Positions 15,720 through 44,166 are shown, counted from the first letter of the stretch. The stretch: 64,000 nucleotides of DNA from Meyerozyma guilliermondii (GCA_051546255.1 CP128817.1:62001-126000); one strand, 5' to 3'. The notes: generated by a model not told the origin, from the sequence alone. Program-made: numbers and translations.

Positions 15720-16006
15720 ACGCGTAAGGATCAAAAGCTATTATAGGGTCTTCAACGTAATTCCCAATCCGATTCAAAACTTTGACGTTTCGCACCACGT
15801 TTGGTACTGCAGACAAGGCAAACAGGAAGGACGATAAGAAAACGCCAAAAATCAGTTCTATGCTTAGAAAAACGACTAGAAATATACTGCCATTGTACAC
15901 AGCCCCAATTTTCTCTTTCAGCTTTTTTTCTCCTCTCCTTCGCCAATTACATTCCCCACCCTCGTGTCCTGCATAAACAACACCCTTTACTTTCGCAGCC
16001 TCGCGT
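15720..16006. promoter_or_regulatory. MCB-type elements in the ANP1/SMC2 divergent promoter
   Basis: ACGCGT at 15720-15725 and TCGCGT at 16001-16006. Confidence 0.45.
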
Positions 16007-16023
16007 AAACAAACACCACTGCA

Positions 16024-19000
16024 ATGAAGGTGGAGGAGTTGATTATAGATGGCTTTAAATCGTATGCAACTCGTACGGTGATCTCAGATTGGGATCCACA
16101 GTTCAATGCAATCACTGGATTGAACGGATCCGGAAAATCAAATATCTTGGACGCAATATGTTTTGTGCTTGGTATCGCCTCGATGACCACGGTTCGAGCT
16201 TCGAATTTACAGGACTTGATTTACAAAAGAGGACAGGCTGGAGTAACCAAGGCGAGTGTGACCATTGTTTTCGACAACAGCGATACCTCCAAGTCTCCTA
16301 TAGGGTTCGAAACTTGCTCCAAAATCAGTGTCACAAGACAGATCATTCTCGGTGGAAGCTCCAAATATTTGGTTAATGGTCACAAAGCTCAACAACAGAC
16401 CGTACTCAATTTATTCCAGTCGGTGCAACTCAACATCAACAACCCCAACTTCCTTATTATGCAAGGTAAAATAACCAAAGTTTTGAACATGAAACCGTCA
16501 GAAATTTTGTCACTCATCGAAGAGGCGGCTGGAACGCGTACTTTCGAAGAACGTAAAGACAAGGCCAAGAAAACTATGGCGAAAAAAGATACAAAACTTG
16601 CTGAGATACGCTCGTTGCTTCAAGAAGAAATCGAACCCAAACTCGAAAAGCTCAGAAACGACAAGCGTACGTTTGTCGAGTACCAACAAGTTCAGACCGA
16701 CCTCGAGAAACTCACCCGCATCATAACTGCCCATGACTATACCACATACAACGAAAAATACAACGACCACAAGAACGGCTTGTCGTCCCAGCGTGAACAA
16801 CGTGATACCTACCAGCGAGAAATGAGCAAAAGGAGCGACGAAATTACCCATTTGAATACAGAACTAGACCATCTCAGGTCGCAGCATGAAGAGGAAATGA
16901 AGAAAGACAACACAATAAAGTCCCTAGAAGCCAGTGAAAACGAAATCACGGAAAAGATCACTCGTCTCAATACCACGAAAGAAATAACTATAGACAACTT
17001 GAAGGAAGAAAAGAAGAAAAAACAAAAACTCCAAGCTCAATACACCAAGGTCGAGCAGCATGTTCTCAATAGTGATGATATCTACAAGAACGCAGAAGCT
17101 GCTTTTAATGATGCTAAACAAAAACTCAACGAAATTAAACAAGAGCATTCCAAGAAAGAAGAACTTTTATCAACATTGTCGACGGGAGTCTCAGCTTCAG
17201 GCGCTACTGATGGTGGATATGTTGCTCTGTTAAAGGAGAGAAAGAAGATGCTTAATGATTCCAGCATACTTATAAAGCAGTCTCAGCTCAAGATTTCCCA
17301 CCTCCGAGAGCAAATCAGTAATGACGAGTCAAAATTGCATGCAGCAAAGCAAGAAACAGCCTCTTTGAAAGATAATATCAAGGTGTACGAGAAGGAAGTC
17401 ACGCTCAAGGAACAGGAGTTGAATAGCTTGGGATATGATACGAGGCGTATCGGGGAGCTCAGAAAGCAAGAGAATGACTTACTGAACGAGTTACACTCCT
17501 TGGACAACCAGTTGAACGCAATAAGAAGAGAAGTGGGAAACATCGACTTTGCATATTCTGATCCCACTCCCAATTTCAATCGAAACTTGGTGCGAGGTGT
17601 TGCGGCACAGTTATTCACGTTGAAAGACTCGGAAACTGAAAAGGCCATGGCACTTCAGGTTTGTGCTGGAGGCCGTCTCTTCAACGTTGTTGTCGATACT
17701 TCTGATGTGGCGTCACAAATTTTGGAAAAGGGTCAGCTCAGAAAAAGGGTGACGATTATACCGCTCGATAAGATATCATCGAAGTCAATTGGTGCCAACA
17801 CCGTCAACACTGCCAAGTCGTTATGCCCCGGAAAGGTCGACCTCGCGATCAACTTGATTGACTTTGAAAATGAGCTCACACAGGCAATGGAATATATATT
17901 TGGGTCAACTTTCATATGCGATGATCCTGATACAGCTAAAAAAGTGACATTTTCCAATCAGATAAGAGCTAGATCGATAACTTTGGAGGGAGATATTTAT
18001 GATCCCGAAGGTAATTTGTCGGGAGGTTCAAGAAGAAACACCTCTTCCATTCTTTTAAACATGCAAAAGTACAACAAGGCGCTCAATCGTATGAACGAGG
18101 TTGCGCAAGAACTTGCTTTTGTACAAGAGGAGTTGGAAAAGTTCAATATTATAGGGAAGCAGACAACTTCTTTGCAAAGCGAGATCAATTTGAAAAAGCA
18201 TGAACTTGGTATTTTACAGAAAAAATTGGATAATAATCCAAGTGCAACCATTCTCCGTAACTACGAAGTCAACCAGAAGGAGATAGTCAACCTCGAAGCA
18301 TCAATTGAGGAAGAGGAGCAAAGATCAGCACAGTATGAAAGCGATATATTGTCCATTGAGCAAGATATGAAAGAGTTCAATAGTGACAAGGGCCTGAAAT
18401 TGAAGCGCATAGAGAAGGAGGTCAACGAATTACGAGAGTTGCTTGTAACTAAGGAGGATGAGATCGAGGCAAAGTCTCAGAAATTTCAGTCAATCGAGCT
18501 TGAAACAGAACAGTACCAAGCAGAACTCAATACTTTAAAGGAAGACTTGGAAACCTGTGAGGCGGCCATAAGAGAGAACGAAAACGAACTGGCTCTGATA
18601 GACAACAAGATTTCTGATTTGTCTACTGAATTAGAAAGTATCAGAGTTCAGCTAGATGAAGAGAGAGCCAATTTGCTCGGACTCAAAGAAGAATTAAATG
18701 CAGTTACGAAAGCTATACAAGAAAAGAAAGATGAAATCAACGAGCTTCAGTTGAACATCCAGAAGTTGGACAATGAACTTGAAAAGTCTACATCTATATC
18801 AAACAACTTGCAGAGCCATATTGACAAGTTGATCGAACTGCATTCTTGGGTGACTGATTCTAACGTTCTCAGAAGCATAATTGATCTGTACCCCAACATT
18901 GATTTAAATGAATGTCGTCTGCAAGTTGCAGTGCTTGAAGAACGGTTTCAAGGAATGAGGCGTAAGGTTAACCCCAATATTATGAGTATGATTGACAATG

Positions 19001-19536
19001 TCGAAAAGAAGGAAGTATCGCTTAGACAAATGATTCGAACCATTGAAAAAGATAAGGCGAAAATAGTCAACACTATTGAAAAGTTGAACGGATACAAACG
19101 GGATACGTTGAATGCAACATACCAGAAGGTATCGGTTGACTTTGGACAAATCTTTGGCGATTTGCTTACCGGTTCATTTGCCAAGTTGGTGCCTGTAGAC
19201 AACGATGATGTCACCAAGGGATTGGAAGTGAAGGTGAAATTAGGACCCGTTTGGAAGGAAAGTTTGGTAGAGTTGTCAGGAGGACAGAGGTCATTGATTG
19301 CCTTATCACTTATTATGGCGCTCTTGCAATTTAAGCCAGCTCCAATGTACATTTTGGACGAGGTGGACGCTGCACTCGATTTGTCACACACCCAAAACAT
19401 CGGACATTTGATCAAAACGAGATTTAAAGGGTCCCAGTTCATTATTGTGTCTCTTAAAGAGGGAATGTTCACCAACGCCAATAGAGTGTTCAGGACGAGA
19501 TTCCAGGACGGAACATCGGTAGTTTCTGTTATGTAA
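16024..19536 (+). CDS. SMC2: Condensin ATPase Smc2
   Basis: Walker A GLNGSGKSN, long coiled coils with hinge, signature LSGGQRS, Walker B ILDEVDAALD. Confidence 0.97.
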   Translation: MKVEELIIDGFKSYATRTVISDWDPQFNAITGLNGSGKSNILDAICFVLGIASMTTVRASNLQDLIYKRGQAGVTKASVTIVFDNSDTSKSPIGFETCSKISVTRQIILGGSSKYLVNGHKAQQQTVLNLFQSVQLNINNPNFLIMQGKITKVLNMKPSEILSLIEEAAGTRTFEERKDKAKKTMAKKDTKLAEIRSLLQEEIEPKLEKLRNDKRTFVEYQQVQTDLEKLTRIITAHDYTTYNEKYNDHKNGLSSQREQRDTYQREMSKRSDEITHLNTELDHLRSQHEEEMKKDNTIKSLEASENEITEKITRLNTTKEITIDNLKEEKKKKQKLQAQYTKVEQHVLNSDDIYKNAEAAFNDAKQKLNEIKQEHSKKEELLSTLSTGVSASGATDGGYVALLKERKKMLNDSSILIKQSQLKISHLREQISNDESKLHAAKQETASLKDNIKVYEKEVTLKEQELNSLGYDTRRIGELRKQENDLLNELHSLDNQLNAIRREVGNIDFAYSDPTPNFNRNLVRGVAAQLFTLKDSETEKAMALQVCAGGRLFNVVVDTSDVASQILEKGQLRKRVTIIPLDKISSKSIGANTVNTAKSLCPGKVDLAINLIDFENELTQAMEYIFGSTFICDDPDTAKKVTFSNQIRARSITLEGDIYDPEGNLSGGSRRNTSSILLNMQKYNKALNRMNEVAQELAFVQEELEKFNIIGKQTTSLQSEINLKKHELGILQKKLDNNPSATILRNYEVNQKEIVNLEASIEEEEQRSAQYESDILSIEQDMKEFNSDKGLKLKRIEKEVNELRELLVTKEDEIEAKSQKFQSIELETEQYQAELNTLKEDLETCEAAIRENENELALIDNKISDLSTELESIRVQLDEERANLLGLKEELNAVTKAIQEKKDEINELQLNIQKLDNELEKSTSISNNLQSHIDKLIELHSWVTDSNVLRSIIDLYPNIDLNECRLQVAVLEERFQGMRRKVNPNIMSMIDNVEKKEVSLRQMIRTIEKDKAKIVNTIEKLNGYKRDTLNATYQKVSVDFGQIFGDLLTGSFAKLVPVDNDDVTKGLEVKVKLGPVWKESLVELSGGQRSLIALSLIMALLQFKPAPMYILDEVDAALDLSHTQNIGHLIKTRFKGSQFIIVSLKEGMFTNANRVFRTRFQDGTSVVSVM

Positions 19537-19597
19537 GTATGTATGGAAAGTTGCAGCCATTGAGCCCGTTGCGCTGTATACAGGAATTTTCAATCCG

Positions 19598-22500
19598 ATG
19601 ATCAGTGCAAGTACGAACATCAACTATATGATTCGGCAACGAATATGGCGTCTTCAAGGCACCAGGCAACTTGCCACGAGTACTAGGACCACCAAGCGAG
19701 ATACCGAACAGCGATATAAACGCGAGAAGGTCTCAAACCAAACAAAACTTTCAAATGAACCCGCAGATACAACTAGAGAGATTTTAGATCAAACCAAAAG
19801 TACATATTATGATCCAGAAAACACCACTTTAAACTTAAACTTACGCAATAAAGAGCTACTTCGGCAGATCAGACAAGCCACAGAAGACAGAATGAAAAAA
19901 CGATACGAAATACCGTCTCTGAATTGGAGTGAATCATTGAAGAAACAGTTCAGCAAAAACTATTCCAAAAAGTTCACCGATCAGCTACAAAGGTGTTTGG
20001 ATAACGCTGCAATATCTCCAGACTCAATAACAAAGCCGCTAGGTGTTGGAGACTTGGTTACACTAAGTGACGATACTATGGAATTATACATAGTAGTTGC
20101 CCAGCCCGAGACAATTGGCTCGAATGCCTATACATTTATCAACAACGAAGGTGAAATAGTGTACGGGTCCAAGTTCATGATTCAAATGCGGTTTCCTGGA
20201 GTAATAGACAAGGAACTTGTGGAGACGCTCAAAACGTTCGTTCAGCTCGAACGCAAGTACGAAAATGTTGCGCCCATAGGAGTGTCTGATGCTTCGTTTT
20301 CTCGATCCGAAGAGTCTGCTCCACCGCTGATGAGGCAGGCTGGGGAAAAGAATACAAAAGAAGATGTAAGCGAGCCAGAAGACTCCGACCTCAACACTGA
20401 ATTTATCGTTGCTCTGGCGTCGTCACAATTGCTCACTAATTCAAATGTGAACACCTTTTTCGTGCCCACTTCAGCTCGTGAACTGTACTCGAAATCCCTT
20501 ACCAGCATATCTTTATCAGCATTTAACCAAGTGCCCCAGATTTCTCGGAGACTTGAGGTTTTGCATCGAGCTCTTCAGTATACGGAAGACGGTGATATCT
20601 TGGATTCTCCCAAGACTGTCTACATTTTTGACATGTTGAGGTACTTGCAACTATTTGATGAGATTGACGTACCACAAGAACCTATGGATACTTTCTGCCG
20701 TAGACTCAAGGCCTCAATTGACGAGAAACTTCACCAATTTGAAGAAGACACTTCTCATTTGGGAAAATTAGTACCAAAGATGAAAGATGTTGTGGACAGA
20801 CCTTTTCATGTTTCTACGTTTCTCGCTTCAATTATAGCTATGAGGACCCAGGGTCGTCTTTGGAAGGTGAACCAGCAAGGTTCAAGTAATCCTCCATTGA
20901 GTGTAACCGTCTTACCCTTGAAAGATGCACAACTTATTGAGTCTACGTTGGCTCTTCTCATGAGCAGCAATGGAGAAAGCGCATTTGCAGCTGATTTTGT
21001 GGGTGTAGTCAACGGTAAGAAGTCTATGAGTTCCAAGTTTTTGGGAGTAATTCAGCTTTTTCGAGACTATGTGGCTGGAAATTTCACCAATGATACTGCA
21101 ATCGAGGCAAAATTGGTCCTGGTGATTCGTTTAATTGACAAGCAGTTGCACCGCCGTGAAGATGATGTTCCTCTTTTATATGAATACTCGCGGGCTCGAT
21201 GCTACGAATTGCTACAGCAATATGAGTCCGTTGACAAAAGCTGGATCGAGAACCCGTCCGCATGGAATGCTTCGCTTTTGTCTTCAAGTCCAGGAATTCT
21301 GTTGAAATCAGACCTCAATTCTGACTTTTACAACTATCTAAGTGCGACTGCTTTAAATCAGCAAAGAGTTGAAGAAATTGAAGACACAGAGTTTCAAACG
21401 GAAGATCCGCTTGTGCTGCACCGTGAGTCCTTTGGACCCGTTCCCATCTACTGTATAGACTCGGAACATGCCCACGAAATTGACGACGGAATTGCAATCA
21501 CCAGCGATGAGAACAACTACAAGATTCTGGTTCATGTTGCCGATCCCACGTCGTATGTTCGGCTATTTTCCAACCTCAGCAACGTTGCATTTGAAAAAGG
21601 TACAACCACATATCTTCCTGAGGGCCCCATAATGATGCTTCCCAAGTTTGTTTCTGAAATTTGTGGTCTTGGGTCGACAAACGAAACAAGAACGTTTGTT
21701 GTAGAATTCGAGATTTCAAAGAGCCTTTTGCAAGAGTTTCGAAACCCGCAGAGCCACGGCGACCAAATACAAAGTGTGCTTGAAGCGGTCGCAAATCAGG
21801 TCAAGACCAGCTCCAATGTTCGATATTGCACCGCAACCAATTTCCCTCAAAAGTTTACATATTCCAAGGTGAACGAGGTGCTCAACTCGCCAACTTTAAG
21901 TGACGACACCAAAAGCTGTGAGCATGCCAAGAACTTGGTCAACTTGTACGATGTAGCCCGGCTCCTCCATAATGCTCGGGTATACACCGGAAACGCAATT
22001 GACACAGATATACCGAGGTCTTCAGTTCTGGTGAGTTATGCCCAAAAAGGCAAGCCAGGGCTTGTGGAGTCAGAACATGGATACGAAATGACGCTCCAGC
22101 ACACCCATGGCGATAAAGGGTACCCAGTCATTAGCATTGGAACAAATCCCGACCAAGCAGCAGACTCCAAGTCGCAGACTCTAGTTTCCAATTTGATGGT
22201 TGCAGCCAACACTGCCGCTTCCCAGTTTGCATCCAGTCATGGAATCGAGCTAGTTCATCGAGCGCAAGAAATCAGTTTGGAAAAGAGCGTCTTGGAACAG
22301 TTGCAAAATCTCACCAGAAGAAGATATGAAACAGCGACGCCATTGTCAGTCGAGGAAACGAGTCAAGTATTGTCGGTGCTAACGTCAGCCAAGTACAAAG
22401 TGGGAAGAGATCGGCATGAGGCGTTGGGAGTGGAAGGCTACGCCACAGTTACGTCTCCATTACGGAGGTACGTAGATATGGTCAACCACTGGAAATTCCA

Positions 22501-30756: not shown

Positions 30757-32523
30757 ATGCTTTTCAGGGGTAATCGGATACTTTCCCGGCATTTGAGACA
30801 TAAATTAACTTTTGGACGCGGAATTTCAGGTACGGGACTTAAAAGTGGTGTCCAGCTGAACCGTGCAGTATTTTTCGCAGCCATTGGTGGGGCATTTATT
30901 GGGGCTGCAACTGTATTTGCAACTACTACTAAAAACCATGAAAAGAACAAACCACCTCAACTTTCAACGAGTCCAATTGACACGGTGGAGCCAGTGGTGT
31001 ATGCTGATAACAATGACTTTGAATTGGCGGTCGAAAAAATGAAAAAAGTAGTAGGCGAGAACAATGTTAGTACTGATGAAGCAGAATTGAAAGCCCAATC
31101 AGATTCATTCTTTAGCACTCATCATCCACCCGATCCTTTGAAACAGAAACCAAAAGCATTAGTGTATCCGCTGTCAACAGAAGAGGTTGCTGAACTAGTG
31201 AAAATTGCCCATGAGTATCGGGTACCTGTGATTGCAACTTCCGGATTTACTTCACTTGAAGGCCAGGCAATGCACACAAGAGGACCCAATAGCATTGCTA
31301 TCTCCTTTGCCAACATGCACAAAATCTTGAAAATACACCCAGAAGATCTTGACATGACGGTAGAAGCTGGTACAAGTTGGCAAGATATTGATCAATATCT
31401 TTTAAGCAATGACGATACCAGCCATTTGATGTTTGGTCCCGACCCAGGAATGGGTGCTTGCATTGCAGGGATGGTTTCGACTTCAGCTAGTGGCACCAAT
31501 GCATACAAATATGGAACCATGAAAGAAAATGTCGTCAACTTGACGGTGGTTTTGGCCGATGGAACTATTATCAAAACCAAGCAACGGCCTCGCAAAACCA
31601 GTGCCGGTTACGACATCACCAGGCTCTTTATTGGAGCCGAGGGCACACTAGGAATCATCACTGAAATCACCGTAAAATTGCATGTTCGACCAGTTGTTGA
31701 ATTCGTAACCTTGGCTTCGTTTCCCACTATTAAAGATGCCGCCGCCACGGCTCTGGAGATCATTTCCAAGAGCGGCTTGCAACCCAATGCCATTGAGATA
31801 TTGAACGAAGCTATGGTATCATTTGTCAACTCGAGTCAAGGACAAAATGATCATAAATTTTTGGAGAAACCAACACTTCTCTTCAAATTTGGCGGTCCCA
31901 CTAAAAAGGACGTTGATACCCAGGTTGAAGTTGCAAGGAAAATTGCATCGAAAAACCTGCTCATCAACTTGGAAACATCTAGTAATCGTGAAGATAACGA
32001 CACCTTATGGACAGCTCGTCGAGCAGGACTTTGGTCTACCTACGAATATGGTTCCAAAGTGCTAGAAAACAAAGATGATGTTCAAGTTTGGACCACAGAC
32101 ATTGCCGTACCCATTTCAAAATTGGCTCAGGTGATTTCAGAGACAAATGACGATATTCGAGCTCTGGGATTTGGAGACAAGTTCTCGATCATGGGCCACA
32201 TTGGAGATGGAAACTGCCATTTTCTCATCCTCTACAACTCTCCTGACTACAAAAAAGTACAGAAAGTGGTCGACAGAATGGTATACCGAGCAATTGACCT
32301 CGAGGGAACCTGTACTGGTGAGCATGGAGTTGGAATAGGAAAGAGAAAATATTTGAACAAAGAGCTCGGAAAAGAAACCGTTGATTTGATGAGACACCTC
32401 AAACTCCTGATGGATCCAAGAAGAATCCTAAACCCTGATAAGATTTTCCGTGTAGACCCTTCGGACACTTTGGATGCTCAATTTGATGCGGCACACATCC
32501 ATGATCATGGATGTTGTAGTTAG
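30757..32523 (+). CDS. DLD1: Mitochondrial D-lactate dehydrogenase (cytochrome), FAD-linked oxidase
   Basis: Presequence from ATG 30757, PDPG, RPRKTSAGYD, HIGDGNCH, TGEHGVGIGK, ILNPDKIF. Confidence 0.88.
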   Translation: MLFRGNRILSRHLRHKLTFGRGISGTGLKSGVQLNRAVFFAAIGGAFIGAATVFATTTKNHEKNKPPQLSTSPIDTVEPVVYADNNDFELAVEKMKKVVGENNVSTDEAELKAQSDSFFSTHHPPDPLKQKPKALVYPLSTEEVAELVKIAHEYRVPVIATSGFTSLEGQAMHTRGPNSIAISFANMHKILKIHPEDLDMTVEAGTSWQDIDQYLLSNDDTSHLMFGPDPGMGACIAGMVSTSASGTNAYKYGTMKENVVNLTVVLADGTIIKTKQRPRKTSAGYDITRLFIGAEGTLGIITEITVKLHVRPVVEFVTLASFPTIKDAAATALEIISKSGLQPNAIEILNEAMVSFVNSSQGQNDHKFLEKPTLLFKFGGPTKKDVDTQVEVARKIASKNLLINLETSSNREDNDTLWTARRAGLWSTYEYGSKVLENKDDVQVWTTDIAVPISKLAQVISETNDDIRALGFGDKFSIMGHIGDGNCHFLILYNSPDYKKVQKVVDRMVYRAIDLEGTCTGEHGVGIGKRKYLNKELGKETVDLMRHLKLLMDPRRILNPDKIFRVDPSDTLDAQFDAAHIHDHGCCS

Positions 32524-33356: not shown

Positions 33357-33911
33357 TTAGTTGTGTGTCAGTGCTTCAGCTTCGCCTTGCCCATTCCACT
33401 GCTCCACAATCTCCCGTATGCTATTGTCAAACTTGGGTCCTTGGAGCACAGATGCCAGATCGTTCTGGTCGATGCAACTGAACGGATTACAAACTATGCG
33501 AAGATAACATCGTAAAATGCGAGAAAAAAGGTCATTAAAACTCTGTTTTACCGTCTCACCCTCCTCCTCAACAGTTTCTGTAGTTGTTCCTACTATTATT
33601 TTGAGACCAGTGCTGGTTTCATTACCATATACTGTGACATCATCTTGAACAAAAAGAAGAGTAGCACCACCCAAATCAAGTTCTGCCAGCCGTTGCTCCT
33701 GCTGCTGCTGCTCGTGCAACGATAATGTCATCGGCGAGGCAAAAATATCAAGCGCCATGTGTGAAAGAAAATTATACTTGAGAAACCGATTGGCATTGAC
33801 AGTGTCTTCACCAGTTACGTTTTTGGGTAAGTCAAATGCCTGGATATAAAGGGGCGAGTCATCTCGCGAAACGAGTGACACAAAGCAGATCCGACACGCC
33901 CTGGACCTCAT
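33357..33911 (-). CDS. TCA17: TRAPP sedlin-like subunit Tca17
   Basis: FVSLVSRDDSPLYI, LKYNFLSHMALDIF, ETSTGLKIIVG, CNPF. Confidence 0.8.
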   Translation of the reverse strand: MRSRACRICFVSLVSRDDSPLYIQAFDLPKNVTGEDTVNANRFLKYNFLSHMALDIFASPMTLSLHEQQQQEQRLAELDLGGATLLFVQDDVTVYGNETSTGLKIIVGTTTETVEEEGETVKQSFNDLFSRILRCYLRIVCNPFSCIDQNDLASVLQGPKFDNSIREIVEQWNGQGEAEALTHN

Positions 33912-34464
33912 AAATGCAATTGTGGACTGTGAATGTGGGAATAGTGAGTCTCTGGTCCACTATCGCCAGAAACCTAGGTGATCGGGCGCTTACGTAATCA
34001 CCAATCCATACGGCTCGATTCAATTAGACGTGAGCTGTAGAGATGTTTTCCACAAGAAGTCCGCATTGCAAGCCTGATTCAGGTATGATTGGATGATTTT
34101 GCAATTCGCAAAGTGAAATCAGAATTTTGATAGTAAGATACGATATCATTGTAGTATTTTTGTCATTAATTTCTGGTGCGGAGAATACAGTGGAAACGCC
34201 CAGCTAATATACACCAAGTTCTTGTTATAGTTTTGCAGCGATCGACTAGCACATGCCTTCTCTTGCCGAATCCATCTAGCATTTTGAACTTTTCGCAATC
34301 AAAGCTATCTGATTATCGCGCAACTTTCACCGCTAGTATAAATTTTTGGGGAAGTACTAGAAATGGGCGATAAGTAAGTAGGCAGATAGAGAGATAATTA
34401 ATTGCTTAAGCCAACTCTCTTCAATGGCTGCTGTCGGAGTATTGACGGTAACATCGTACCGAGT

Positions 34465-34488
34465 TTCGGCAAAACACGAAAATGCCGA
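34465..34488. promoter_or_regulatory. Cluster element copy 1 (TCGG-N15-CCGA), putative Zn2Cys6 site
   Basis: TTCGGCAAAACACGAAAATGCCGA; CGG at 34467-69, CCG at 34485-87; TATAAAT at about 34504. Confidence 0.75.
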
Positions 34489-34553
34489 TCGAAGCATGGG
34501 AGCTATAAATTGCCGGTGCTGCCAAAATGGAAATCGTAAGATTAAATCAAAGG

Positions 34554-35867
34554 ATGAGTGTGCCTACAATTGACTACGAACAGTTGTGGGAAGATATCAC
34601 AGTCAAGACTTGCCAATGGAGTCAATTGAAGGAAAATTCTTCCGGTATCAGTAGACTATCGTTATCTGAGGAAGACAAAAAAGTACGCGATTGGTTCGTT
34701 GCCGAATGCAAGTTGTTGGGATGTGAGATAAAAGTTGACCGAGTGGGAAACATATTTGCGGTATACACCGATGTGTTGCATCCGGAATTGAGTCCGATCG
34801 GTATGGGAAGTCATTTAGATACTCAACCCATGGGAGGACGCTTCGATGGAATCTTGGGTGTGGTGTCTGCCTTAGGAGTATTACGAGCTATCAAGCGTAG
34901 TGGTTACAAACCGTACTTTCCACTAGCTGCTGTAAATTGGACTAATGAAGAAGGAGCTCGATATCTGAAAATGTGCATGGGCTCTGGCGTTTGGTGTGGG
35001 CAATTATCGCCTGATGAGATTCTCAAACTTAAAGATATCGATGGAAAAAAAGTCCTGCTGGAATTGGAGGCTATTGGGTACAATGGACCCATAGCGCCTG
35101 ATCACAAGGTTAACAAATTGAGTGCTCACTTTGAATTGCATATTGAGCAGGGTCCAAAACTCGAGGAGATGTTGGCGCATGAAGGCGGCAGTATTGGTAT
35201 AGGAATCGTACAAGGAATCCAAGCCATGAGATGGTACCAAGTTGAAATAGAGGGACAAGAAGGACATGCTGGAGCGCTCGAAATGGTCAGAAGACACGAT
35301 GCATTGGTTGCAGCTTCTAGATTAGTCTTGGACCTCGATGAGGCAGCTAGAGCGACGCAAAGTGTTGCAACCGTTGGTAGGCTCATACCAAAGACGATCG
35401 CTCCAAACACAATAGTGGGAAAGGTTGACTTGATATTCGACTGTAGGGCAATTAAAGAGTCCCAGTTAGACTCGATCATTCAAAAGGTTGAAAGTACAAT
35501 TAAATCACTATCGCAAGATGGAGGTTATCATATTGAAATGCGTCAAATTTGGGCCCACAAAGCTGTAACTTTCAACGAAGATTGCATTGCAGCAGTTGAG
35601 GAAGTACTTGAAACAAGACCAGACATCCCAACATTAAAAATGTTTAGCGCTGCTGGTCATGATAGCGCATCAACGGCTTCTGTAGTTCCCACTACAATGA
35701 TCTTCGTGCCTTCTGTGGGGGGAATTTCCCATAATCCTGCCGAGTTCACAACTAAGGATCAATGTAAAGCTGGTGCAGAAGTCTTACTCGAATCAGTGTT
35801 GGGCTACGACAAAAAACTAAAAGCATCGATGGAGGCACCGGGAAATCAGATTGAGAAAGGTACATAA
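34554..35867 (+). CDS. M20-family N-carbamoyl-amino-acid amidohydrolase (beta-ureidopropionase/Pyd3-like); alternative ATG at 34527
   Basis: GSHLDTQP, DGILGV, WTNEEGAR, HFELHIEQGP, GHAG, SAAGHD, SHNPAE. Confidence 0.9.
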   Translation: MSVPTIDYEQLWEDITVKTCQWSQLKENSSGISRLSLSEEDKKVRDWFVAECKLLGCEIKVDRVGNIFAVYTDVLHPELSPIGMGSHLDTQPMGGRFDGILGVVSALGVLRAIKRSGYKPYFPLAAVNWTNEEGARYLKMCMGSGVWCGQLSPDEILKLKDIDGKKVLLELEAIGYNGPIAPDHKVNKLSAHFELHIEQGPKLEEMLAHEGGSIGIGIVQGIQAMRWYQVEIEGQEGHAGALEMVRRHDALVAASRLVLDLDEAARATQSVATVGRLIPKTIAPNTIVGKVDLIFDCRAIKESQLDSIIQKVESTIKSLSQDGGYHIEMRQIWAHKAVTFNEDCIAAVEEVLETRPDIPTLKMFSAAGHDSASTASVVPTTMIFVPSVGGISHNPAEFTTKDQCKAGAEVLLESVLGYDKKLKASMEAPGNQIEKGT

Positions 35868-35900
35868 AAGGATTCATAGATTTTGTCGAGCATTCTATAT

Positions 35901-37515
35901 CTATTCGTTAATCGATACTATTTGAAAAAACGAGTTCAAGTCATTACTAATTGACCGGGCAGCCATGTTTCCACACGCAGATTGAAATTGGAGAATTGAC
36001 AAAGGTTCTAATATTTCATAAAAGCCTTTCCGGCCCTTCATTATGTTACTGATAAGAACTATCAGAATGGCAGAATACAAGTAATTTGAGTCGTAAAACC
36101 CTAATTTTGATATCAATTGATTATCTTTGCAAAACTTCATTAGTTTGATGATGCTTGTAGCAGCAGCAAGTCCTGTTATGACTGGTTGCGACGACCAAAT
36201 TGTGTCATTGAATTTTGGAGAATTCATAGACGCTAAATTGAAATAGTACAAAAAAACTGGGCGTAGTGCCAAAATGGTCGTCTGGTTGTAAAACAAAAGT
36301 AACGATGCGTCCTTTCTTTCTTTAACAGTGGATGTTTCAAGTGAGGGTCTAATAGCAGCAGGTAGCTCTTTTTTAAACTGCTCGAGACTATCCAAGACAG
36401 AAAAGATTTGCAGCATGTCTTTGGCGATATTAAAGGATTTGGCATAGATGGTCGAGAGTATTTTCGACGTAATAACCGCCAACTTGATGTTCAAAGTAAA
36501 GTAAGTGTGATCGAAAAAGAGTCCTTCCTCGTCTGTTCCTAGCTGCGTCCTTGAAGGTAACGGAACATCCACATGGTCAACGCATATATGCTGCGGGGTG
36601 CCCAAGAGCGAAACACAAAACATTTCCATAACAAATGCCGTCCACCATGTTCGTGATCTATGTTCCTTTACTACTGGACTGACGTTTGACCCAGGCAGTT
36701 TGTGAAGGCCGATATGGAGGGCTTTTCTTACGGCACACGCACTATGAATTGAAGCAAGTCCTCTCTGATTGAGGATAAGGAGGTACCACGCAAATAGGAT
36801 GTGGGTTTGTATTGCAATCAAGGAGAAACTCGAGTTAACTTCATGCAGATACTTGAGGGCCAATTTGAAGTACAGATAGCCCGGAAAATCGTCCGTGACA
36901 ATCGTATTTTTATCGTACACAGCTCCCAAGGACATCACTAGACAGAATTGCGATACAACCATAGGATGATTTCGATCTATACCGTTAGAGTAAATAGAAT
37001 CGATGTTCAATAGGAGCTCGTCGTATAAAAAAAAGTGATAGTCATATTGCAAAAAACTCAAAAACTTTTTAAGGTTGTCCACAACTGCCACGCCAGCGGG
37101 AAGTGTCGCATCGTCATCGACATCAATATTTGGGGTGTCAAGCTCTTCGCTATTGAATTTTAATGCCAGATCTGGGTCGATCACATTAGCGACTCTGGCT
37201 AAGAATTCTTGCGTGTTGCTAGAAAGGAGCGGCTCGAAATGAGCAGTAGAGTCAAATTCTTTCGGCAGAGGACTCTGGCTATCTTCAAAAAGTCGTAATC
37301 TTTCTCGCAAACCCTCAAGTTCTCGAAGACTTATGTTAATTCGCCGATCCTTGCCCAGGTAGACACAGCGTACATTTCGAGCAGCACAAGACCGGCAAGA
37401 CGGACGTTCACCGGAGCATTTTGTTTTCGACTTGTGGCACCTGTTACACCTACATCTGTTAATAATGGGCCCCGGATTTCATTTTGGTCACAACTTACGC
37501 TGCCGATGTCCTCAT
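35901..37515 (-). CDS. Zn(II)2Cys6 transcription factor, join(37515..37499,37449..35901)
   Basis: A 49-nt intron at 37498-37450 (GTAAGT, TATTAAC, TAG) yields MRTSAACNRCHKSKTKCSGERPSCRSCAARNVRCVY with six Cys. Middle-homology region reads IGLHK...EHRSRTWWT...LGTP. The ORF track misses the DNA-binding domain. Confidence 0.9.
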
Positions 37516-37593
37516 AGATTAATTGCAGTCAAGGCAATTTTGCGTGAAAGAACCCGATCTAATATCGTATTTTTGTGCGGCTCATCATGCGAG

Positions 37594-37617
37594 TTCGGCA
37601 ACTATCCAAAATGCCGA
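37594..37617. promoter_or_regulatory. Cluster element copy 2 (TCGG-N15-CCGA) in the TF/permease divergent promoter
   Basis: TTCGGCAACTATCCAAAATGCCGA; CGG at 37596-98, CCG at 37614-16; TATAAAA at about 37661. Confidence 0.75.
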
Positions 37618-37713
37618 TCTGTATCGCTCGCTCGAACCGCTCCAACAGATGTCTCAAAGTTATAAAAGAGAGGTGCTTTGGTCCATTAAGGACCACGGTA
37701 CAGGGAAGGAGAC

Positions 37714-39174
37714 ATGATGGAAAAGCTGGAGTTCTCAGAAAGTGTTCTTAAAAGTGAAGAGTTGAGCACTCACGAGGAACAAGATCAAGAGTTCAAGAAC
37801 ATCGAGAAGAGAGTATTAAGAAAATTTGATTTCATCATCATGCCATGTCTTTGCCTAGCCTATCTCTTCTCCACCTTGGACAAGGCAAATATTGGGAATG
37901 CTAAGGTGGCTGGTATGAGTGACGACTTGGGATTGAGTGGTAATCAATTTGGAAATGTTGTAAGTTTACTTTATATCACCTATGTGATAGTTGAAACGCC
38001 ATTGGCACTCATTCTCAAGTTTGTTGGAGCAAAGTATGTTTTGTCAGTCTTGTGTTTTCTTTTCGGTATATGCTGCTTGTGTACTGCCCTTGCAACCGAC
38101 TACCATTCCCTCTTGGCATGCAGAATGTTAGTGGGACTTTTCGAAGCAGGTATAATTCCTTGCATCAATGTGTACTTGAGTATGTTGTACACAAAAAAAG
38201 AAGTTGCAAAAAGATGTGCAGCCGTTTACTCTGCTGGTGCCGTCTCTGGAGCGTTTGGAGGTTTATTGGCTTATGGGTTGACTAAGATTAACACCGACAA
38301 ATGGTCCGGATGGCAGTTCTTGTTCGCCGTGGAAGGTGGTTTGACCATTTTGGCAGCTCCAGTAATAATTCTTCTTCTTCCTCGTAACGTAAGGGAAGCT
38401 TGGTGGCTCAATAAGGAAGAGAGAAAAGTATTGACCACACGATTGGCAACTTACTCTGATTTTCACCAAGATGAGAAATTCATGTGGTCTGAGGTTGTTA
38501 GAGGATTAAAGGATATCAACACAGTTGTGGTATGCCTCTATCAGTTTTGTGTGGATGTCACTTTGTTTGGAATATCAACTTTTTTACCCTCGATTATTCT
38601 TGGTATGGGCTACGATTCGTATAAGACTCAGCTTATGACGATCCCATTCTATGTGGTTGCCCTTCTTAGTTTTGCAACAACCTGTTACTTTTCGGACAAG
38701 ACAGGTAATCGAGGGTTCTTTATTGCTGGAGGAGTGGTTTGTGAAATTATTGGTTATATCATTTTGATTGCTAGTAACCCGCTTGGCTCCAGATATTTCG
38801 GTTGTTTGATGATCGGCCTAGGAATCTACATCTGTTCAGGTTTAAGTGTTATGTGGATTAACAACAACAATGCTGGACATTATAAGAGAGCTACAGCCGC
38901 AGGTATGTGTACCACTATTGGAAATATCGCTGGTGTACTCGCAGGTCAAATTTACACAGCAGATACGGCTCCACGTTATTTTAAAGGATTGAAGATTGCG
39001 CTAGGAATGACATGTGCAGCTTTGGTGTTTTGTTCACTTATGATCTATAATTATTACCTGATGAATAAGAAGAAAGAGAGAATTATAGCCGCTATGAGTG
39101 CTGAGGAGATTGACCAAATGAATGCCAATTTGGCTCATAAAGATACTGATTTAACTTTCAAGCTTTTACTTTAA
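37714..39174 (+). CDS. MFS anion:cation symporter, Dal5/Tna1 family
   Basis: RKFDFIIMP, LDKANIGNAK, GLFEAG, GWQFLFAVEG, AGHYKRA, APRY; about 12 hydrophobic segments. Confidence 0.88.
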   Translation: MMEKLEFSESVLKSEELSTHEEQDQEFKNIEKRVLRKFDFIIMPCLCLAYLFSTLDKANIGNAKVAGMSDDLGLSGNQFGNVVSLLYITYVIVETPLALILKFVGAKYVLSVLCFLFGICCLCTALATDYHSLLACRMLVGLFEAGIIPCINVYLSMLYTKKEVAKRCAAVYSAGAVSGAFGGLLAYGLTKINTDKWSGWQFLFAVEGGLTILAAPVIILLLPRNVREAWWLNKEERKVLTTRLATYSDFHQDEKFMWSEVVRGLKDINTVVVCLYQFCVDVTLFGISTFLPSIILGMGYDSYKTQLMTIPFYVVALLSFATTCYFSDKTGNRGFFIAGGVVCEIIGYIILIASNPLGSRYFGCLMIGLGIYICSGLSVMWINNNNAGHYKRATAAGMCTTIGNIAGVLAGQIYTADTAPRYFKGLKIALGMTCAALVFCSLMIYNYYLMNKKKERIIAAMSAEEIDQMNANLAHKDTDLTFKLLL

Positions 39175-39334
39175 ACTCTTTACATAGATTAGAATTGCAT
39201 AGATATGTTTCTTGGGTTAAGTTATCATTACGAAGCATGAGCTTTGTTATATAGAAGTAAATAGAAAAGCAAACTTTTATCTCATAACAGTACTATGTTT
39301 GTAAACTGCTCTAATCTCACAACACTTACATTTA

Positions 39335-40878
39335 CTACATATAAGATGGTCTCCACTCAGATATCCACTTGTTAGTTGGAACAGCCAACTGACTCTTACC
39401 TCTAGGTACGAATGCGCCAGATTTGGATGCATCATCGGTGAATTTGCCTTCCTCAAAGACAACCTTACCCTTCAAAATATTGTAACGGGGCCAGTTATGG
39501 ATATTAAAACCTTCAAAAGGCGTATAGTCACACTCAGTATGCAAATTCTTGGAAGAGATCGAATTTTTGTAAGTTCCTTCAGGATACCAAATAACAATGT
39601 CCGCGTCCGACACACCCGGGTTCAAAGTGCCTTTTTGTGGGTATAACCCATAAAGTTTGGCAGGGTTAATGCAATTAAGCTCAACAAATTTGGTCCATGA
39701 AATCTTCTTTTCTAGAACTCCGAAGCTTGCGAGAAGAGCTAACCTTGTTTCAACACCAGGGCAGCCATTAGGGATCCACTTGAACTCACCGTTGTGGCCG
39801 TTCTTGAAAGCGATACGCTTTCCATCTTCACTGTGATATTTGGTAGGACAGTGATCTGACGAGAAAATAGTAATGGAATTATCCTCGAGTCCGTTCCATA
39901 CCGCTTGTTGGTCCTTTTCGCTATGGCGGGGTGGTGGCGAGCAAAGGTATTTAGCACCTTCAAAAGGATCGTGACAATGTATCCGCTTCAAGTCCTCAGC
40001 TTTGAGAAGGAGATACTGAGGACATGTTTCCGCAAATACACTTAAGCCTCTGGAGCGTGCTTCTCTAATTGATCTTATAGCCTCTGGTGCTGAAACATGG
40101 ACGAAGAGCACGGGAGAATCCATTGCTTCAGACATAACAATTGCCCTGTTCGTTGCTTCTCCCTCAAAGATAGAAGGACGAGAAATCGCATGATAATAGG
40201 GTTCTGTGTGACCCTGTTCCTCCAACGAGTCGATCATCCACTGGATCATATCCCCATTTTCGGCGTGCAACATGACCGTGATTCCACACTTCCTGGCATA
40301 ATAGAGTACTGTCATCAAATCATAATCCCTCATTTGCAACTTGGGGTAGGTCATAAACAACTTAATGCTCGTCACTTTCCCCTCCTCTGCCAATAAAGTC
40401 AATTGTTGCTCAAGACAGTCTTTCTCAATTTTATACATGACTAAATGCAATGAATAATCACAATAAAGCATGTCTCCACACTTTTCTTGACACTTTTTTA
40501 TAGTTCGGATTAGAGCTTCGGCGCCCAGGTCATTTGGATCTTGTGATGCAAATGCAATGATAGTTGTTGTTCCTCCCGCAGCTGCGCTTCGGGTTCCCAG
40601 TTCGAAGTCGTCCGAAATTTTTCCAAAGAGATCTAATGGCTCTTTTAGGTGAACATGAGCATCTACACCACCTGGAGTAACTATTGCACCCTCCGCATCG
40701 ATCACTTTTCTTGACGTCGCTTTTGACAAGTCCCCAATTTTTGCTATCTTTCCATCTTGCACACCGATATCGGCCCTCCTTAAATACTCGGTGCACACAA
40801 ATCCATTCTAGTTGTTAGAGAAACATTTGATTCAACAAAGCACCTTTGGTTACTTACCGTAATTATTAAATCGAACAT
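39335..40878 (-). CDS. Dihydropyrimidinase/hydantoinase (Pyd2-like cyclic amidohydrolase), join(40878..40858,40807..39335)
   Basis: A 50-nt intron at 40857-40808 (GTAAGT, CTCTAAC, TAG) gives MFDLIITNG. Metal motifs DAHVH, SIKLFMTY (carbamylated Lys), LHAEN, FVHVS, SDHC. C-terminal EWRPxY as in Lachancea kluyveri Pyd2. Confidence 0.92.
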
Positions 40879-40940
40879 CTTTTTTGTTAGTTGCGGATTG
40901 TAAGAAGCTTTTATTGATTTTGCAGCCATACAGGCTTACT

Positions 40941-41010
40941 TTCGGCACGCGCCTTAATTGATCGGTGGTTGCGAAAAATGCCGAACTTGCATTCGGCATG
41001 AGATGCCGAA
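40941..41010. promoter_or_regulatory. Cluster element copy 3 plus three extra TTCGGCA half-sites in the hydantoinase/monooxygenase divergent promoter
   Basis: TCGGTGGTTGCGAAAAATGCCGA (CGG 40963-65, CCG 40981-83). Half-sites at 40941-47, 40992-99 and 41003-10; TATAAA at 41021. Confidence 0.78.
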
Positions 41011-41058
41011 GTGATTTCAATATAAATTGAAGGGTACCGCCTCCATTGAAATCAGGAA

Positions 41059-42333
41059 ATGACGCACGATAGATTGGATATAGTTGTGGTTGGTGGCGGA
41101 ATTGCTGGTTTATCAGCAGCCATTTCTATCGCATTAAATGGCCACAACGCAATTGTCTTAGAAGCCGCAAAGGAAGTTAAAGAAGTGGGTGCAGGTATCC
41201 AAATCTCCAGTAATTCAACAAAAATCTTGAAAAGATGGGGCATTTGGGATACCTTAGAGCCGAAGGCTAACATCCCACTCTTCACTGATTTCAGACATTA
41301 TAAAACAAATGAAATTTACTCGGTAGCAGATCATACTTTGATGGCTGAGCTCTATGGAGGCCCATTCGGGAATCTTCACAGAGCTACATTACATCAGCTG
41401 TTGTTGGATAAAGCTTTGTCTCTTGGTGTAGTTGTGCAACCCAACTCACGGGTACATAGCATTAATTTTGACGAACCGTCAGTAACACTCGAGAATCAAA
41501 TTGTGGTTAGAGGTGATTTTATTGTTGGTGCAGACGGTTACAAGTCAAAGTGCTCGGAAAATTTTAGGGGAGCTCATGATAAGCCAAAGTTTTCAGGGGA
41601 TATGGCATACCGGATTATTGTCGATTTTGACGACGTTAGTCAAGATGTGCTCTTGGAGGATATAGCAAACGACAACTGTATCCACTACTGGATGGGCCCA
41701 GATACTCACTTTGTATCTTATGCCTGCGACAATAATAGATATTATAACGTTGTTATCCTCACCAAGTGTGACCGAGAACCAGATTTCGGGACGTCATCAA
41801 GTGAAGCTGACTTACAGGAGATGTGCGCCAAATTCAAAGATTGGCATCCACTTCTTCAACAAATGTTAACAAAGGTGAAAGCAACCTCTACTTGGCAATT
41901 GTGGATGAGGGATACGGCATCTGAATGGTCCCATGCTAACGGACAATTTACCTTAGCGGGAGATGCTGCTCATGTAACTGTCCCATATATAGGTCAAGGA
42001 GCCGGAATGGGCATTGAGGACGGGTGTGTTATAGGTGAGGCGCTTGGCAGAATCAAATCAAAAAAGGACTTGGCAACGGCAGTTCAAGCGTACGACAAAG
42101 TCAGAATCGAAAGATGCGCCAGAATTGTTCAGATGAGCAGAGACATGGGTGTCATAATGCACTTGCAGGATGGTCCAGCAGCCGAGAGCAGAAACGAGAT
42201 TATGAAGTTGCCCTTTCCTCTCAAAGGTGACCCAAATCTCTGGAGAGACCCTTCCAATGCAGAGTGGCTATATGGTTTCGATCCCTTCAAGGCAACGGAA
42301 GAAGCATTCAATAACTGCAGTCATAATCTGTAA
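41059..42333 (+). CDS. Group A FAD-dependent monooxygenase (salicylate hydroxylase/Mnx1/HxnX-like)
   Basis: GGGIAG, EVGAGIQ, HRATL, GADG, GDAAH...GQGAGMGIEDG, C-terminal HLQDGP...WLYGFD. Confidence 0.9.
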   Translation: MTHDRLDIVVVGGGIAGLSAAISIALNGHNAIVLEAAKEVKEVGAGIQISSNSTKILKRWGIWDTLEPKANIPLFTDFRHYKTNEIYSVADHTLMAELYGGPFGNLHRATLHQLLLDKALSLGVVVQPNSRVHSINFDEPSVTLENQIVVRGDFIVGADGYKSKCSENFRGAHDKPKFSGDMAYRIIVDFDDVSQDVLLEDIANDNCIHYWMGPDTHFVSYACDNNRYYNVVILTKCDREPDFGTSSSEADLQEMCAKFKDWHPLLQQMLTKVKATSTWQLWMRDTASEWSHANGQFTLAGDAAHVTVPYIGQGAGMGIEDGCVIGEALGRIKSKKDLATAVQAYDKVRIERCARIVQMSRDMGVIMHLQDGPAAESRNEIMKLPFPLKGDPNLWRDPSNAEWLYGFDPFKATEEAFNNCSHNL

Positions 42334-42591: not shown

Positions 42592-44166
42592 ATGACTTCC
42601 CTCTATTCACATAAAGAAGGATCACCTCCGCCATTGCCCAGTCGACGTCAGCAAGCTCCTCCAAAACCACCAAAACTTCCTCAAAGAAGATACCAAAACG
42701 ACGAGGAAGAGGCTCCACCCTTGCCCAGGAGAAGCCAGTCACCTTTTGAGGTGAATTTGGTCACACCAGTCATTCGAAAACGAGAACCTCCAATAAAACC
42801 GAAAGCATCAAAACCAACATTAAACGCTGAAAAGAGACCACAATATGGTGCTAACGACACAAAAGTGGTCAATGATGATCGCAAATTGAAAACGAACGAA
42901 AGTGACGCTGAAACTACTAAAAAGACATTTAACAATACATCGTTTGGGACTAAACCAGCTACCAAGTACAAGTCTTTTCTCGATCTTGAACAGCAAATAA
43001 AGACAGGACAACGAATTGGCGAGTCAAATGAAAAGACACCCAAACCGACTGCCCCGAAAAAACCTGCCAAAATTGCACACACACCTCTGGAAGAACAGAA
43101 GCCTGAGAAAGCCACGAAAGAGCCTGCAAATGGTCCTTTAAAAGGTCCTGGGTTTATTGCGAAGTCATTCACGAAAATCACAAGCCCAGCTCGTGCCTCC
43201 GAGACAGAAAAACCTATAGATTCTGAAAATTTCAGAGGGTCAGAACCACCAGAATCCAAAGAACCACCCAAAGAGCCAGTAAAAGGGCCCGGATTCATTG
43301 CAATGTCCTTCACCAAAGAAAGTCTTCCTCACAAACCAAGACCTCATGTGGGTCCCAAGCCTGACATAAAAGAAAGTTCCACATCACAACCTTCTGAAAC
43401 CACAGAACAGAAACCACCAAAGCCAAAACCTAGAATTGGAGCCAAGCCTCCACTGAAGACAAGTGAAGCACCAACAGCAGAAAAAGGCCCTGGGTTTATT
43501 GTAATGCCGTTTACCAAAGTTGCGGCTCCCAGCAATCAAGAAAGACCACTGAAACCCCAGCCTTTGACTTCGAAATCTCAGCCATTGGCTCCCAAGACAC
43601 CTCCAAAACCATCGAAACCAGCATCCCCTGCTGCCTTAAAGACTCGTTCCATTTCAATCGGAGCACTGGCACCAACTAACACCGAAGCAATTGGTGCACT
43701 CTCAAGACTCAAACCTACCAAACCAGTCCAGAATTCGAGCAAGCATATCACTCTAAATGAGAACAAATCTAGTGACAGTGTCAATTCCAAATCATCGTTA
43801 TCATTCAATGATCATCTTTCGTCGCTTCTCAAAACCAACACTTTGCCAAGCCTTTCTGCTGCAGAGAAGCCGCAACCACCTCAAAGGTCTACAACTTTAC
43901 CCGACATTACTGGTCCTGCAAAAATCACCCACGCAAACAAGAAGAGGGCAAAGGGCCCCAAGAGAAGACTTCCTGGTAAATCCTCGTCAAATACTTCTAA
44001 AGGGTCAATTTCTTCCTTGTCATCTACACCAACGTTGCTGCAAAAAGCACCATTAGCAACATTGAAAAAAACATCACCAGTGGTCAAAAAAACACCTCCG
44101 CCCGTCAACAAGGCTTCTAAACCTAAGGTTGCATCCAAACCAGACCCCATTGTCGTAAATAACTAA
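42592..44166 (+). CDS. BSP1: Pro/Lys-rich endocytic adaptor, Bsp1-like, with a capping-protein-interaction (CPI) motif
   Basis: Many PPxLPxR/PxKPxK SH3-ligand motifs; ITHANKKRAKGPKRRLP at about 43924-43974 resembles the Bsp1 CPI motif. Confidence 0.6.
   Translation: MTSLYSHKEGSPPPLPSRRQQAPPKPPKLPQRRYQNDEEEAPPLPRRSQSPFEVNLVTPVIRKREPPIKPKASKPTLNAEKRPQYGANDTKVVNDDRKLKTNESDAETTKKTFNNTSFGTKPATKYKSFLDLEQQIKTGQRIGESNEKTPKPTAPKKPAKIAHTPLEEQKPEKATKEPANGPLKGPGFIAKSFTKITSPARASETEKPIDSENFRGSEPPESKEPPKEPVKGPGFIAMSFTKESLPHKPRPHVGPKPDIKESSTSQPSETTEQKPPKPKPRIGAKPPLKTSEAPTAEKGPGFIVMPFTKVAAPSNQERPLKPQPLTSKSQPLAPKTPPKPSKPASPAALKTRSISIGALAPTNTEAIGALSRLKPTKPVQNSSKHITLNENKSSDSVNSKSSLSFNDHLSSLLKTNTLPSLSAAEKPQPPQRSTTLPDITGPAKITHANKKRAKGPKRRLPGKSSSNTSKGSISSLSSTPTLLQKAPLATLKKTSPVVKKTPPPVNKASKPKVASKPDPIVVNN

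Follow-up and report, generated by a model that had tools for sequence, protein, structure and literature searches.

A TCGG-N15-CCGA element in the promoters of a PYD2/PYD3-like gene cluster of Meyerozyma guilliermondii

The five-gene cluster and its promoters

The stretch of Meyerozyma guilliermondii DNA considered here (GCA_051546255.1, CP128817.1:62001-126000; 64,000 nucleotides, called the window below) contains a compact cluster of five genes, and each of the three promoter regions of this cluster carries one copy of the element TCGG-N15-CCGA, in which two inverted CGG triplets are separated by 15 bp. An earlier note on the same DNA had drawn attention to the element and had proposed that it is the binding site of the zinc-cluster (Zn2Cys6) transcription factor encoded in the cluster, with autoregulation of the factor gene. 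Pfam searches, searches against solved structures and the translations identify the five genes as a PYD3-like amidohydrolase, the Zn2Cys6 factor, an MFS transporter, a PYD2 dihydropyrimidinase and a flavin adenine dinucleotide (FAD) monooxygenase, in this order along the window.

The PYD3-like gene (34527..35867, + strand) encodes an M20 amidohydrolase of the beta-alanine synthase/N-carbamoyl-amino-acid hydrolase family (PF01546, PF07687). Its top solved relative is the beta-alanine synthase 2v8g (E 5e-81), an entry for which the search gave no organism and which, together with related entries, we take to be the Lachancea kluyveri enzyme. Bacterial carbamoylases and deacylases follow from E 2e-74, and its substrate is less certain because the yeast enzyme scores just slightly above them. 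The gene has two in-frame ATGs, at 34527 and 34554, the first of which lies 24 bp past a TATA box. PYD2 (39335..40929, - strand) is composed of a first exon ending at 40858, a 50-nt intron (40857-40808) and a second exon (40807-39335), and it can start in frame at ATG 40929 or at ATG 40878, the latter giving an N-terminus that matches hydantoinases. Its product is related to the solved dihydropyrimidinase 2fty (E 2e-127) and shares 48% identity with the enzyme of Lachancea kluyveri (E 3e-154). With PYD2 and the PYD3-like gene, the cluster thus holds homologues of both the dihydropyrimidinase and the beta-ureidopropionase of reductive pyrimidine catabolism.

The remaining two structural genes are the transporter and the monooxygenase, both on the + strand. 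The MFS protein (37714..39174; PF07690) has a D-galactonate transporter as its top solved relative, and 'Vitamin h protein' is among the named Atlas clusters nearest to it, which points to the anion:cation symporter type of Dal5 and Vht1. The monooxygenase (41059..42333; PF01494) is a group-A FAD enzyme of the salicylate-hydroxylase/decarboxylative-hydroxylase class (8gsm, E 8e-93). Its solved relatives include 4-hydroxybenzoate and vanillate decarboxylative hydroxylases, 6-hydroxynicotinate 3-monooxygenase and the flavoprotein monooxygenase 3rp8, presumably the urate hydroxylase HpxO.

The five genes are served by three promoter regions that together amount to 942 bp, or 1.5% of the window. 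The first, P1 (33912-34526), drives the PYD3-like gene in one direction. P2 (37516-37713) is a divergent region of 198 bp between the start codon of the factor (ATG 37515, - strand) and that of the transporter (ATG 37714), and P3 (40930-41058) is the divergent region between PYD2 and the monooxygenase, with a length of 129-180 bp depending on which PYD2 ATG is used.

The cluster is a conserved unit in related species, in which monooxygenase, PYD2 and factor genes are kept together. Orthologues of the monooxygenase (PRCAT00002472001, 66% identity), PYD2 (PRCAT00002473001, 73%) and the factor (PRCAT00002475001, 53%) lie on one 1,972,668-bp contig of Priceomyces carsonii; this comparison covers these three genes. 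Close relatives of PYD2 (96%) and of the monooxygenase (94%) were both found on one 6,061-bp Logan contig, and for relatives of the factor (65%) and of PYD2 (81%) the same value, 19,120 bp, is listed as the longest contig. The factor and the monooxygenase have an equally narrow range, the next relatives being at 25% and 38% identity, respectively, whereas PYD2 is widespread in fungi. These data also bear on the monooxygenase, whose membership in the regulon was said in the earlier note to be independently supported by the element at 40962. That argument does not hold, because the region of 129-180 bp in which this site lies is common with PYD2 and the site alone cannot place the monooxygenase in the regulon. 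A better argument for its putative membership is that the monooxygenase gene lies next to PYD2 both in Priceomyces carsonii and on a single Logan contig.

The shared element and the motifs around it

When both strands of the window are scanned, TCGG-N15-CCGA has exactly three matches, one in each cluster promoter. They are found at 34466-34488 in P1 (S1), 37595-37617 in P2 (S2) and 40962-40984 in P3 (S3), within the 26-mers that had been quoted from positions 34465, 37594 and 40961 and that are indeed present there. Read on the + strand, S1 and S2 have the form TCGGCA-N11-TGCCGA and S3 the form TCGGTG-N11-TGCCGA, so that the inverted CGG-N15-CCG arrangement expected for Zn2Cys6 dimers occurs in all three. 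The three sites point the same way, their right half is invariant and preceded by AAAA, and all of them contain the 10-mer AAAATGCCGA, as the claim of a common sequence at an exact spacing of 15 nt had implied. S1 is placed 39 bp upstream of the ATG of the PYD3-like gene and 14 bp 5' of TATAAAT at 34503, S2 43 bp 5' of TATAAAAG at 37661, and S3 37 bp 5' of TATAAAT at 41022. These distances, counted by hand from CCGA to the next TATA on the + strand, agree with the 15-45 bp given before. Since the cluster has three promoter regions with one N15 site each, the sites cover all five genes, that of the factor included, as had been proposed.

The strength of the finding, greater than the earlier note had claimed, lies in the position of the sites and in their common 10-mer, and not in the bare count of TCGG-N15-CCGA, for which shuffled sequences give a mean of 0.44 matches. 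The 10-mer AAAATGCCGA is the sole word of this length common to P1, P2 and P3, and its three exact matches in the window all fall within S1-S3. With up to one mismatch it has 10 matches for 5.68 expected, a number that 10 of 100 shuffles reach, so it is enriched in its exact form only. For random triples of window segments with promoter-matched lengths, a word of at least 10 bases common to all three was obtained in 3 of 3000 trials. The composite TCGG-N9-AAAATGCCGA, with 14 specified positions, is matched exactly three times. No match turns up at one or two mismatches, and of the four at three mismatches one is S2 on the opposite strand. Across 200 block shuffles this composite averaged 0 exact matches, 0.03 at up to one mismatch and 0.38 at up to two. 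We consider it almost certain that S1-S3 are a functional cis-element shared by the three promoters.

Two other explanations of the sites were discarded. An RNA hairpin in the 5' leader does not fit, the sites being 5' of the + strand TATA boxes and of the minus-strand start codons, and a comparison by eye with the consensus sequences of general factors such as Abf1, Reb1 and Cbf1 gave no match common to the three sites. Around S1, one TCGG-N21-CCGA sequence lies immediately 5' of the site (34434-34462). The density of CGG/CCG triplets is about 47 per kb in P3 and in the final 150 bp of P1, compared with 18 per kb in the window as a whole. The N21 pair and these triplets may be additional weak half-sites or chance.

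Further motifs are found in the same promoters. P3 contains a perfect palindrome, TTCGGCAT-GAG-ATGCCGAA (40992..41010; S4), in which the half-site of S1-S3 appears at another spacing, CGG-N9-CCG. Among the 23 perfect inverted repeats listed for the window (8-bp arms, spacers of 0-20 bp), it is the only one flagged for a CGG in the left arm. The left half of S4 pairs in turn with the right half of S3 in an everted repeat with 8-bp arms that starts at 40978. With one more TCGGCA half-site at 40942..40947 (+ strand), P3 reaches five half-sites in total. Another TGCCGA/TCGGCA half-site is located at 37501-37506, within the 17-nt first exon of the factor. P1 differs in carrying, 5' of S1, the GATA motifs GATAAG, GATAGA and GATAAT on the + strand (34369-34397); this group together with 34305-34318 includes two more motifs on the opposite strand. 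The GATA cluster is restricted to the promoter of the PYD3-like gene, P2 and P3 having no GATA outside S2, and it may subject this gene to nitrogen-catabolite control.

The cluster is flanked by two genes that have no visible link to the pathway. On one side there is a Sedlin-family gene (33357-33911, - strand), and on the other, directly 3' of the monooxygenase, an open reading frame of 524 residues rich in Pro and Lys (42592-44166, + strand). The latter contains a KGPGFI..FTK-like repeat in three copies and matches no Pfam family, the strong A-skew of the region fits an open reading frame, and it probably lies outside the cluster. Elsewhere in the window, two 20-bp palindromes, both perfect and centred on GATC (31382-31401 and 32495-32514), are located within a gene for a FAD-linked oxidase resembling D-lactate dehydrogenase (30757-32523), and the composition profile has a strong excess of A over T (skew of 0.20-0.22) at 16001-20000.

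The embedded factor and the proposed reading of the sites

The Zn2Cys6 factor gene (35901..37515, - strand) has a first exon of 17 nt (37515-37499), a 43-nt intron (37498-37456) with GTAAGT...AACAG ends, and a second exon (37455-35901) that opens with the motif C-X2-C-X6-C-X6-C-X2-C-X6-C. The protein matches PF04082, and its orthologues carry PF00172 as well as PF04082. The query used to search for relatives began with 5 residues from the end of the intron, which left the matches unaffected. The zinc cluster, from CHKSK to CVYL, is identical in an orthologue of 83% identity. Zinc cluster, linker and the following helix align without gaps to residues 10-65 of Gal4, which implies a linker of Gal4 length, and the DNA-binding domains of Ppr1, Lac9 and Put3 align as well. 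The factor thus has the six-cysteine cluster, the linker and the helical region of a Zn2Cys6 reader. A homodimer prediction for residues 6-85 of the exon-2 translation, with a score of 0.03 and a mark of 0.32, weighs neither way on dimerisation. None of 290 pattern matches in metagenomes encodes a relative of the factor. The earlier note had mentioned neither the gap-free Gal4 alignment nor the PYD2/PYD3 nature of the cluster, the S4 palindrome and the five half-sites of P3.

We lean slightly towards the full proposal, in which the embedded factor, as a dimer, binds S1-S3 and switches on all five genes, its own included. In this proposal each site would offer two inverted WTGCCGAW half-sites with CGG triplets 15 bp apart, the right half being extended by the A-tract (AAAATGCCGA), and the likeliest reader would be the dimer of the factor encoded in the cluster. 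Three sites, in one unidirectional and two divergent promoters, would suffice for the joint induction of five genes, and S2, located in the factor's own promoter, would provide positive autoregulation. The trigger might be a dihydropyrimidine or a ureido-acid substrate, to which the GATA sites would add a nitrogen control of the PYD3-like gene. Since the cluster encodes a Zn2Cys6 factor with a site in its own divergent promoter, it is reasonable to propose both autoregulation and a regulon of five genes. The data show the element with its statistics and positions, the identities of the genes and their conserved adjacency; from these we infer the binding itself, the identity of the protein, the direction of the regulation and the inducer. 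Zinc-cluster proteins read inverted, direct or everted CGG repeats, and the spacing sets the specificity (PMC10954478). Bidirectional action by a long-spaced zinc-cluster site has a precedent in the oleate response elements, which work in both directions in shared promoters (PMC2784042).

Several observations weigh against this proposal. The left half of S3, TCGGTG, is degenerate and weaker than the TCGGCA of S1 and S2, and the distance to the TATA box is unusually short for an upstream activating sequence in yeast, above all the 14 bp of S1. The bare count does not single out N15, since the window contains three copies of TCGG-N21-CCGA as well. Of the half-site consensus WTGCCGAW, 8 of the 17 window occurrences lie in the 942 bp of the cluster's promoters, as do 9 of the 42 of TGCCGA; this counts in favour of the proposal, but the enrichment is post hoc, the sites themselves having supplied the word. 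S4 has the best half-sites of all, yet at N9, a spacing 6 bp shorter than N15; one rigid dimer should not fit both, which suggests two binding modes or two proteins. Finally, the Gal4-length linker suggests a spacing nearer N11, and that the factor can reach over N15 is not self-evident.

The last two points lead to the alternative that the element is functional but read by an unlinked regulator, for instance a zinc-cluster protein of the Ppr1/UaY type with its preference for T-CGG...CCG-A flanks, or by a heterodimer, the embedded factor acting elsewhere (for example at S4) or as a partner. The linker of the factor suits N9-N11 better than N15, S4 offers perfect 8-bp arms at N9, and the TTCGG...CCGAA flanks resemble what we take to be Ppr1 sites. 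The one-sided A-tract of S1-S3 recalls, moreover, sites bound by heterodimers, for example the oleate response element (PMC2784042). S4 is present in just one of the three promoters, and as the factor's site it cannot explain co-regulation of the five genes. The factor's own promoter carries S2, and factors of this class that are embedded in a cluster usually bind the promoters of that cluster. We regard this alternative as rather doubtful, if still worth keeping in mind.

A different alternative would reduce the functional unit to the asymmetric 10-mer AAAATGCCGA alone, bound by a monomer or by a protein that is not of the zinc-cluster class, the left TCGG being incidental. The invariance of the 10-mer beside a left half that varies (TCGGCA, TCGGCA, TCGGTG) would fit such an arrangement, and monomeric binding by zinc-cluster proteins is known (PMC10954478). 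In each of S1-S3, however, the distance between TCGG and the 10-mer is identical, for which hand arithmetic gives a chance of roughly (1/256)^3 at a fixed offset, and this makes the alternative improbable; in addition, S4 and the half-site at 40942 keep TGCCGA without the A-tract. Least probable of all is that the sites have no regulatory role and are a chance coincidence or the remnant of a duplication or of a mobile element. One of 100 shuffles does reach three TCGG-N15-CCGA matches, and the N21 count equals that of N15, but the composite had no exact match in the 200 shuffles, the random triples share a 10-base word in very few trials, and all three sites fall within cluster promoters, which make up 1.5% of the window. 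A duplicated promoter or mobile remnant was rejected because the alignments of P1, P2 and P3 with each other are restricted to the site itself, nothing in the flanks aligning beyond it.

Significance and comparison with known systems

It is plausible that a textbook pattern of fungal control, namely a pathway-specific operator for a zinc-cluster protein, operates in a cluster for which we found no description. A literature search retrieved no regulator or cluster of yeast PYD genes in the texts it could reach, the work on Lachancea kluyveri PYD and URC genes in subscription journals being outside its scope, and a search of the same body of texts for the N15-N17 notation retrieved no zinc-cluster paper. 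A broader picture, which we offer tentatively and think possible rather than probable, is that of an undescribed dihydropyrimidine/ureide regulon in a small Debaryomycetaceae-like clade, in which the monooxygenase would be a true pathway enzyme and N15 would be read despite the Gal4-length linker. If this is true, the monooxygenase would modify the ring oxidatively before PYD2 and PYD3 act and would open a route into the breakdown of pyrimidine or hydantoin rings outside the known reductive, URC and Rut pathways. If the site is the operator that it seems to be, co-induction of the monooxygenase with PYD2 and PYD3 is predicted, and there is a handle on an unstudied regulon through 23 bp of operator DNA and a small regulatory protein (about 520 residues). 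Our general view of how fungal clusters are regulated would be unchanged. We think that two points are of moderate interest, the conserved monooxygenase beside PYD2 and the combination of N15 with a Gal4-length linker. The latter would be one more case among the widely spaced zinc-cluster half-sites and would bear on the way in which spacing depends on the linker and on the geometry of the dimer.

The upstream activating sequences of Gal4/Lac9, Put3 and Ppr1 share with S1-S3 the inverted CGG triplets at a fixed spacing, the location in promoters of pathway genes and a reader whose DNA-binding domain can be aligned to that of the factor. The spacing is N10 for Put3 and N6 for Ppr1. For Gal4 the site is CGG-N11-CCG (PMC10954478). 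In the window, TCGG-N11-CCGA has no match, the cluster sites being at N15 and, for S4, at N9. The N6 form TCGG-N6-CCGA, which we take to be the Ppr1/UaY-type consensus, has its sole match in the window at 4412, outside the cluster. Unlike the sites of Gal4, Put3 and Ppr1, those of the cluster have a spacing of N15, are asymmetric with an invariant one-sided A-tract and are accompanied in one promoter by an additional N9 palindrome.

The earlier description of N15 as unusually long is valid with respect to the N11 of Gal4 and does not extend to the oleate response element of Oaf1-Pip2. The consensus of the latter is CGGN3TNA/RN8-12CCG, which spans N14-18 and therefore includes N15 (PMC2784042). 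The two kinds of element are alike in their long spacing and in being extended asymmetrically, three bases inward from one of the CGG triplets. In the three sites, however, reading from the conserved half gives CGG-CAT-TTT, with T at the A/R position, and a true oleate response element was rejected for this reason. The biological context differs as well, the genes of the cluster serving the breakdown of nitrogen compounds, as judged from their families, and not peroxisomal functions. The factor itself has no visible kinship to Oaf1 or Pip2, its nearest relatives other than orthologues being unnamed proteins of 25% identity.

As a whole, the locus resembles the fungal catabolic clusters with an embedded zinc-cluster activator, in which enzymes, transporter and regulator are adjacent and a CGG motif is found in every promoter, that of the regulator included. 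It differs from the described ones by its content of PYD2, a PYD3-like gene, a transporter of the Dal5/Vht1 type and a FAD monooxygenase. The closest likeness at the level of the enzymes is with PYD2 and PYD3 of Lachancea kluyveri, given the 48% identity of PYD2 and the M20 enzyme being closest to beta-alanine synthase. Unlike those genes, the ones described here stand in a cluster that also holds genes for a regulator, a transporter and a monooxygenase.

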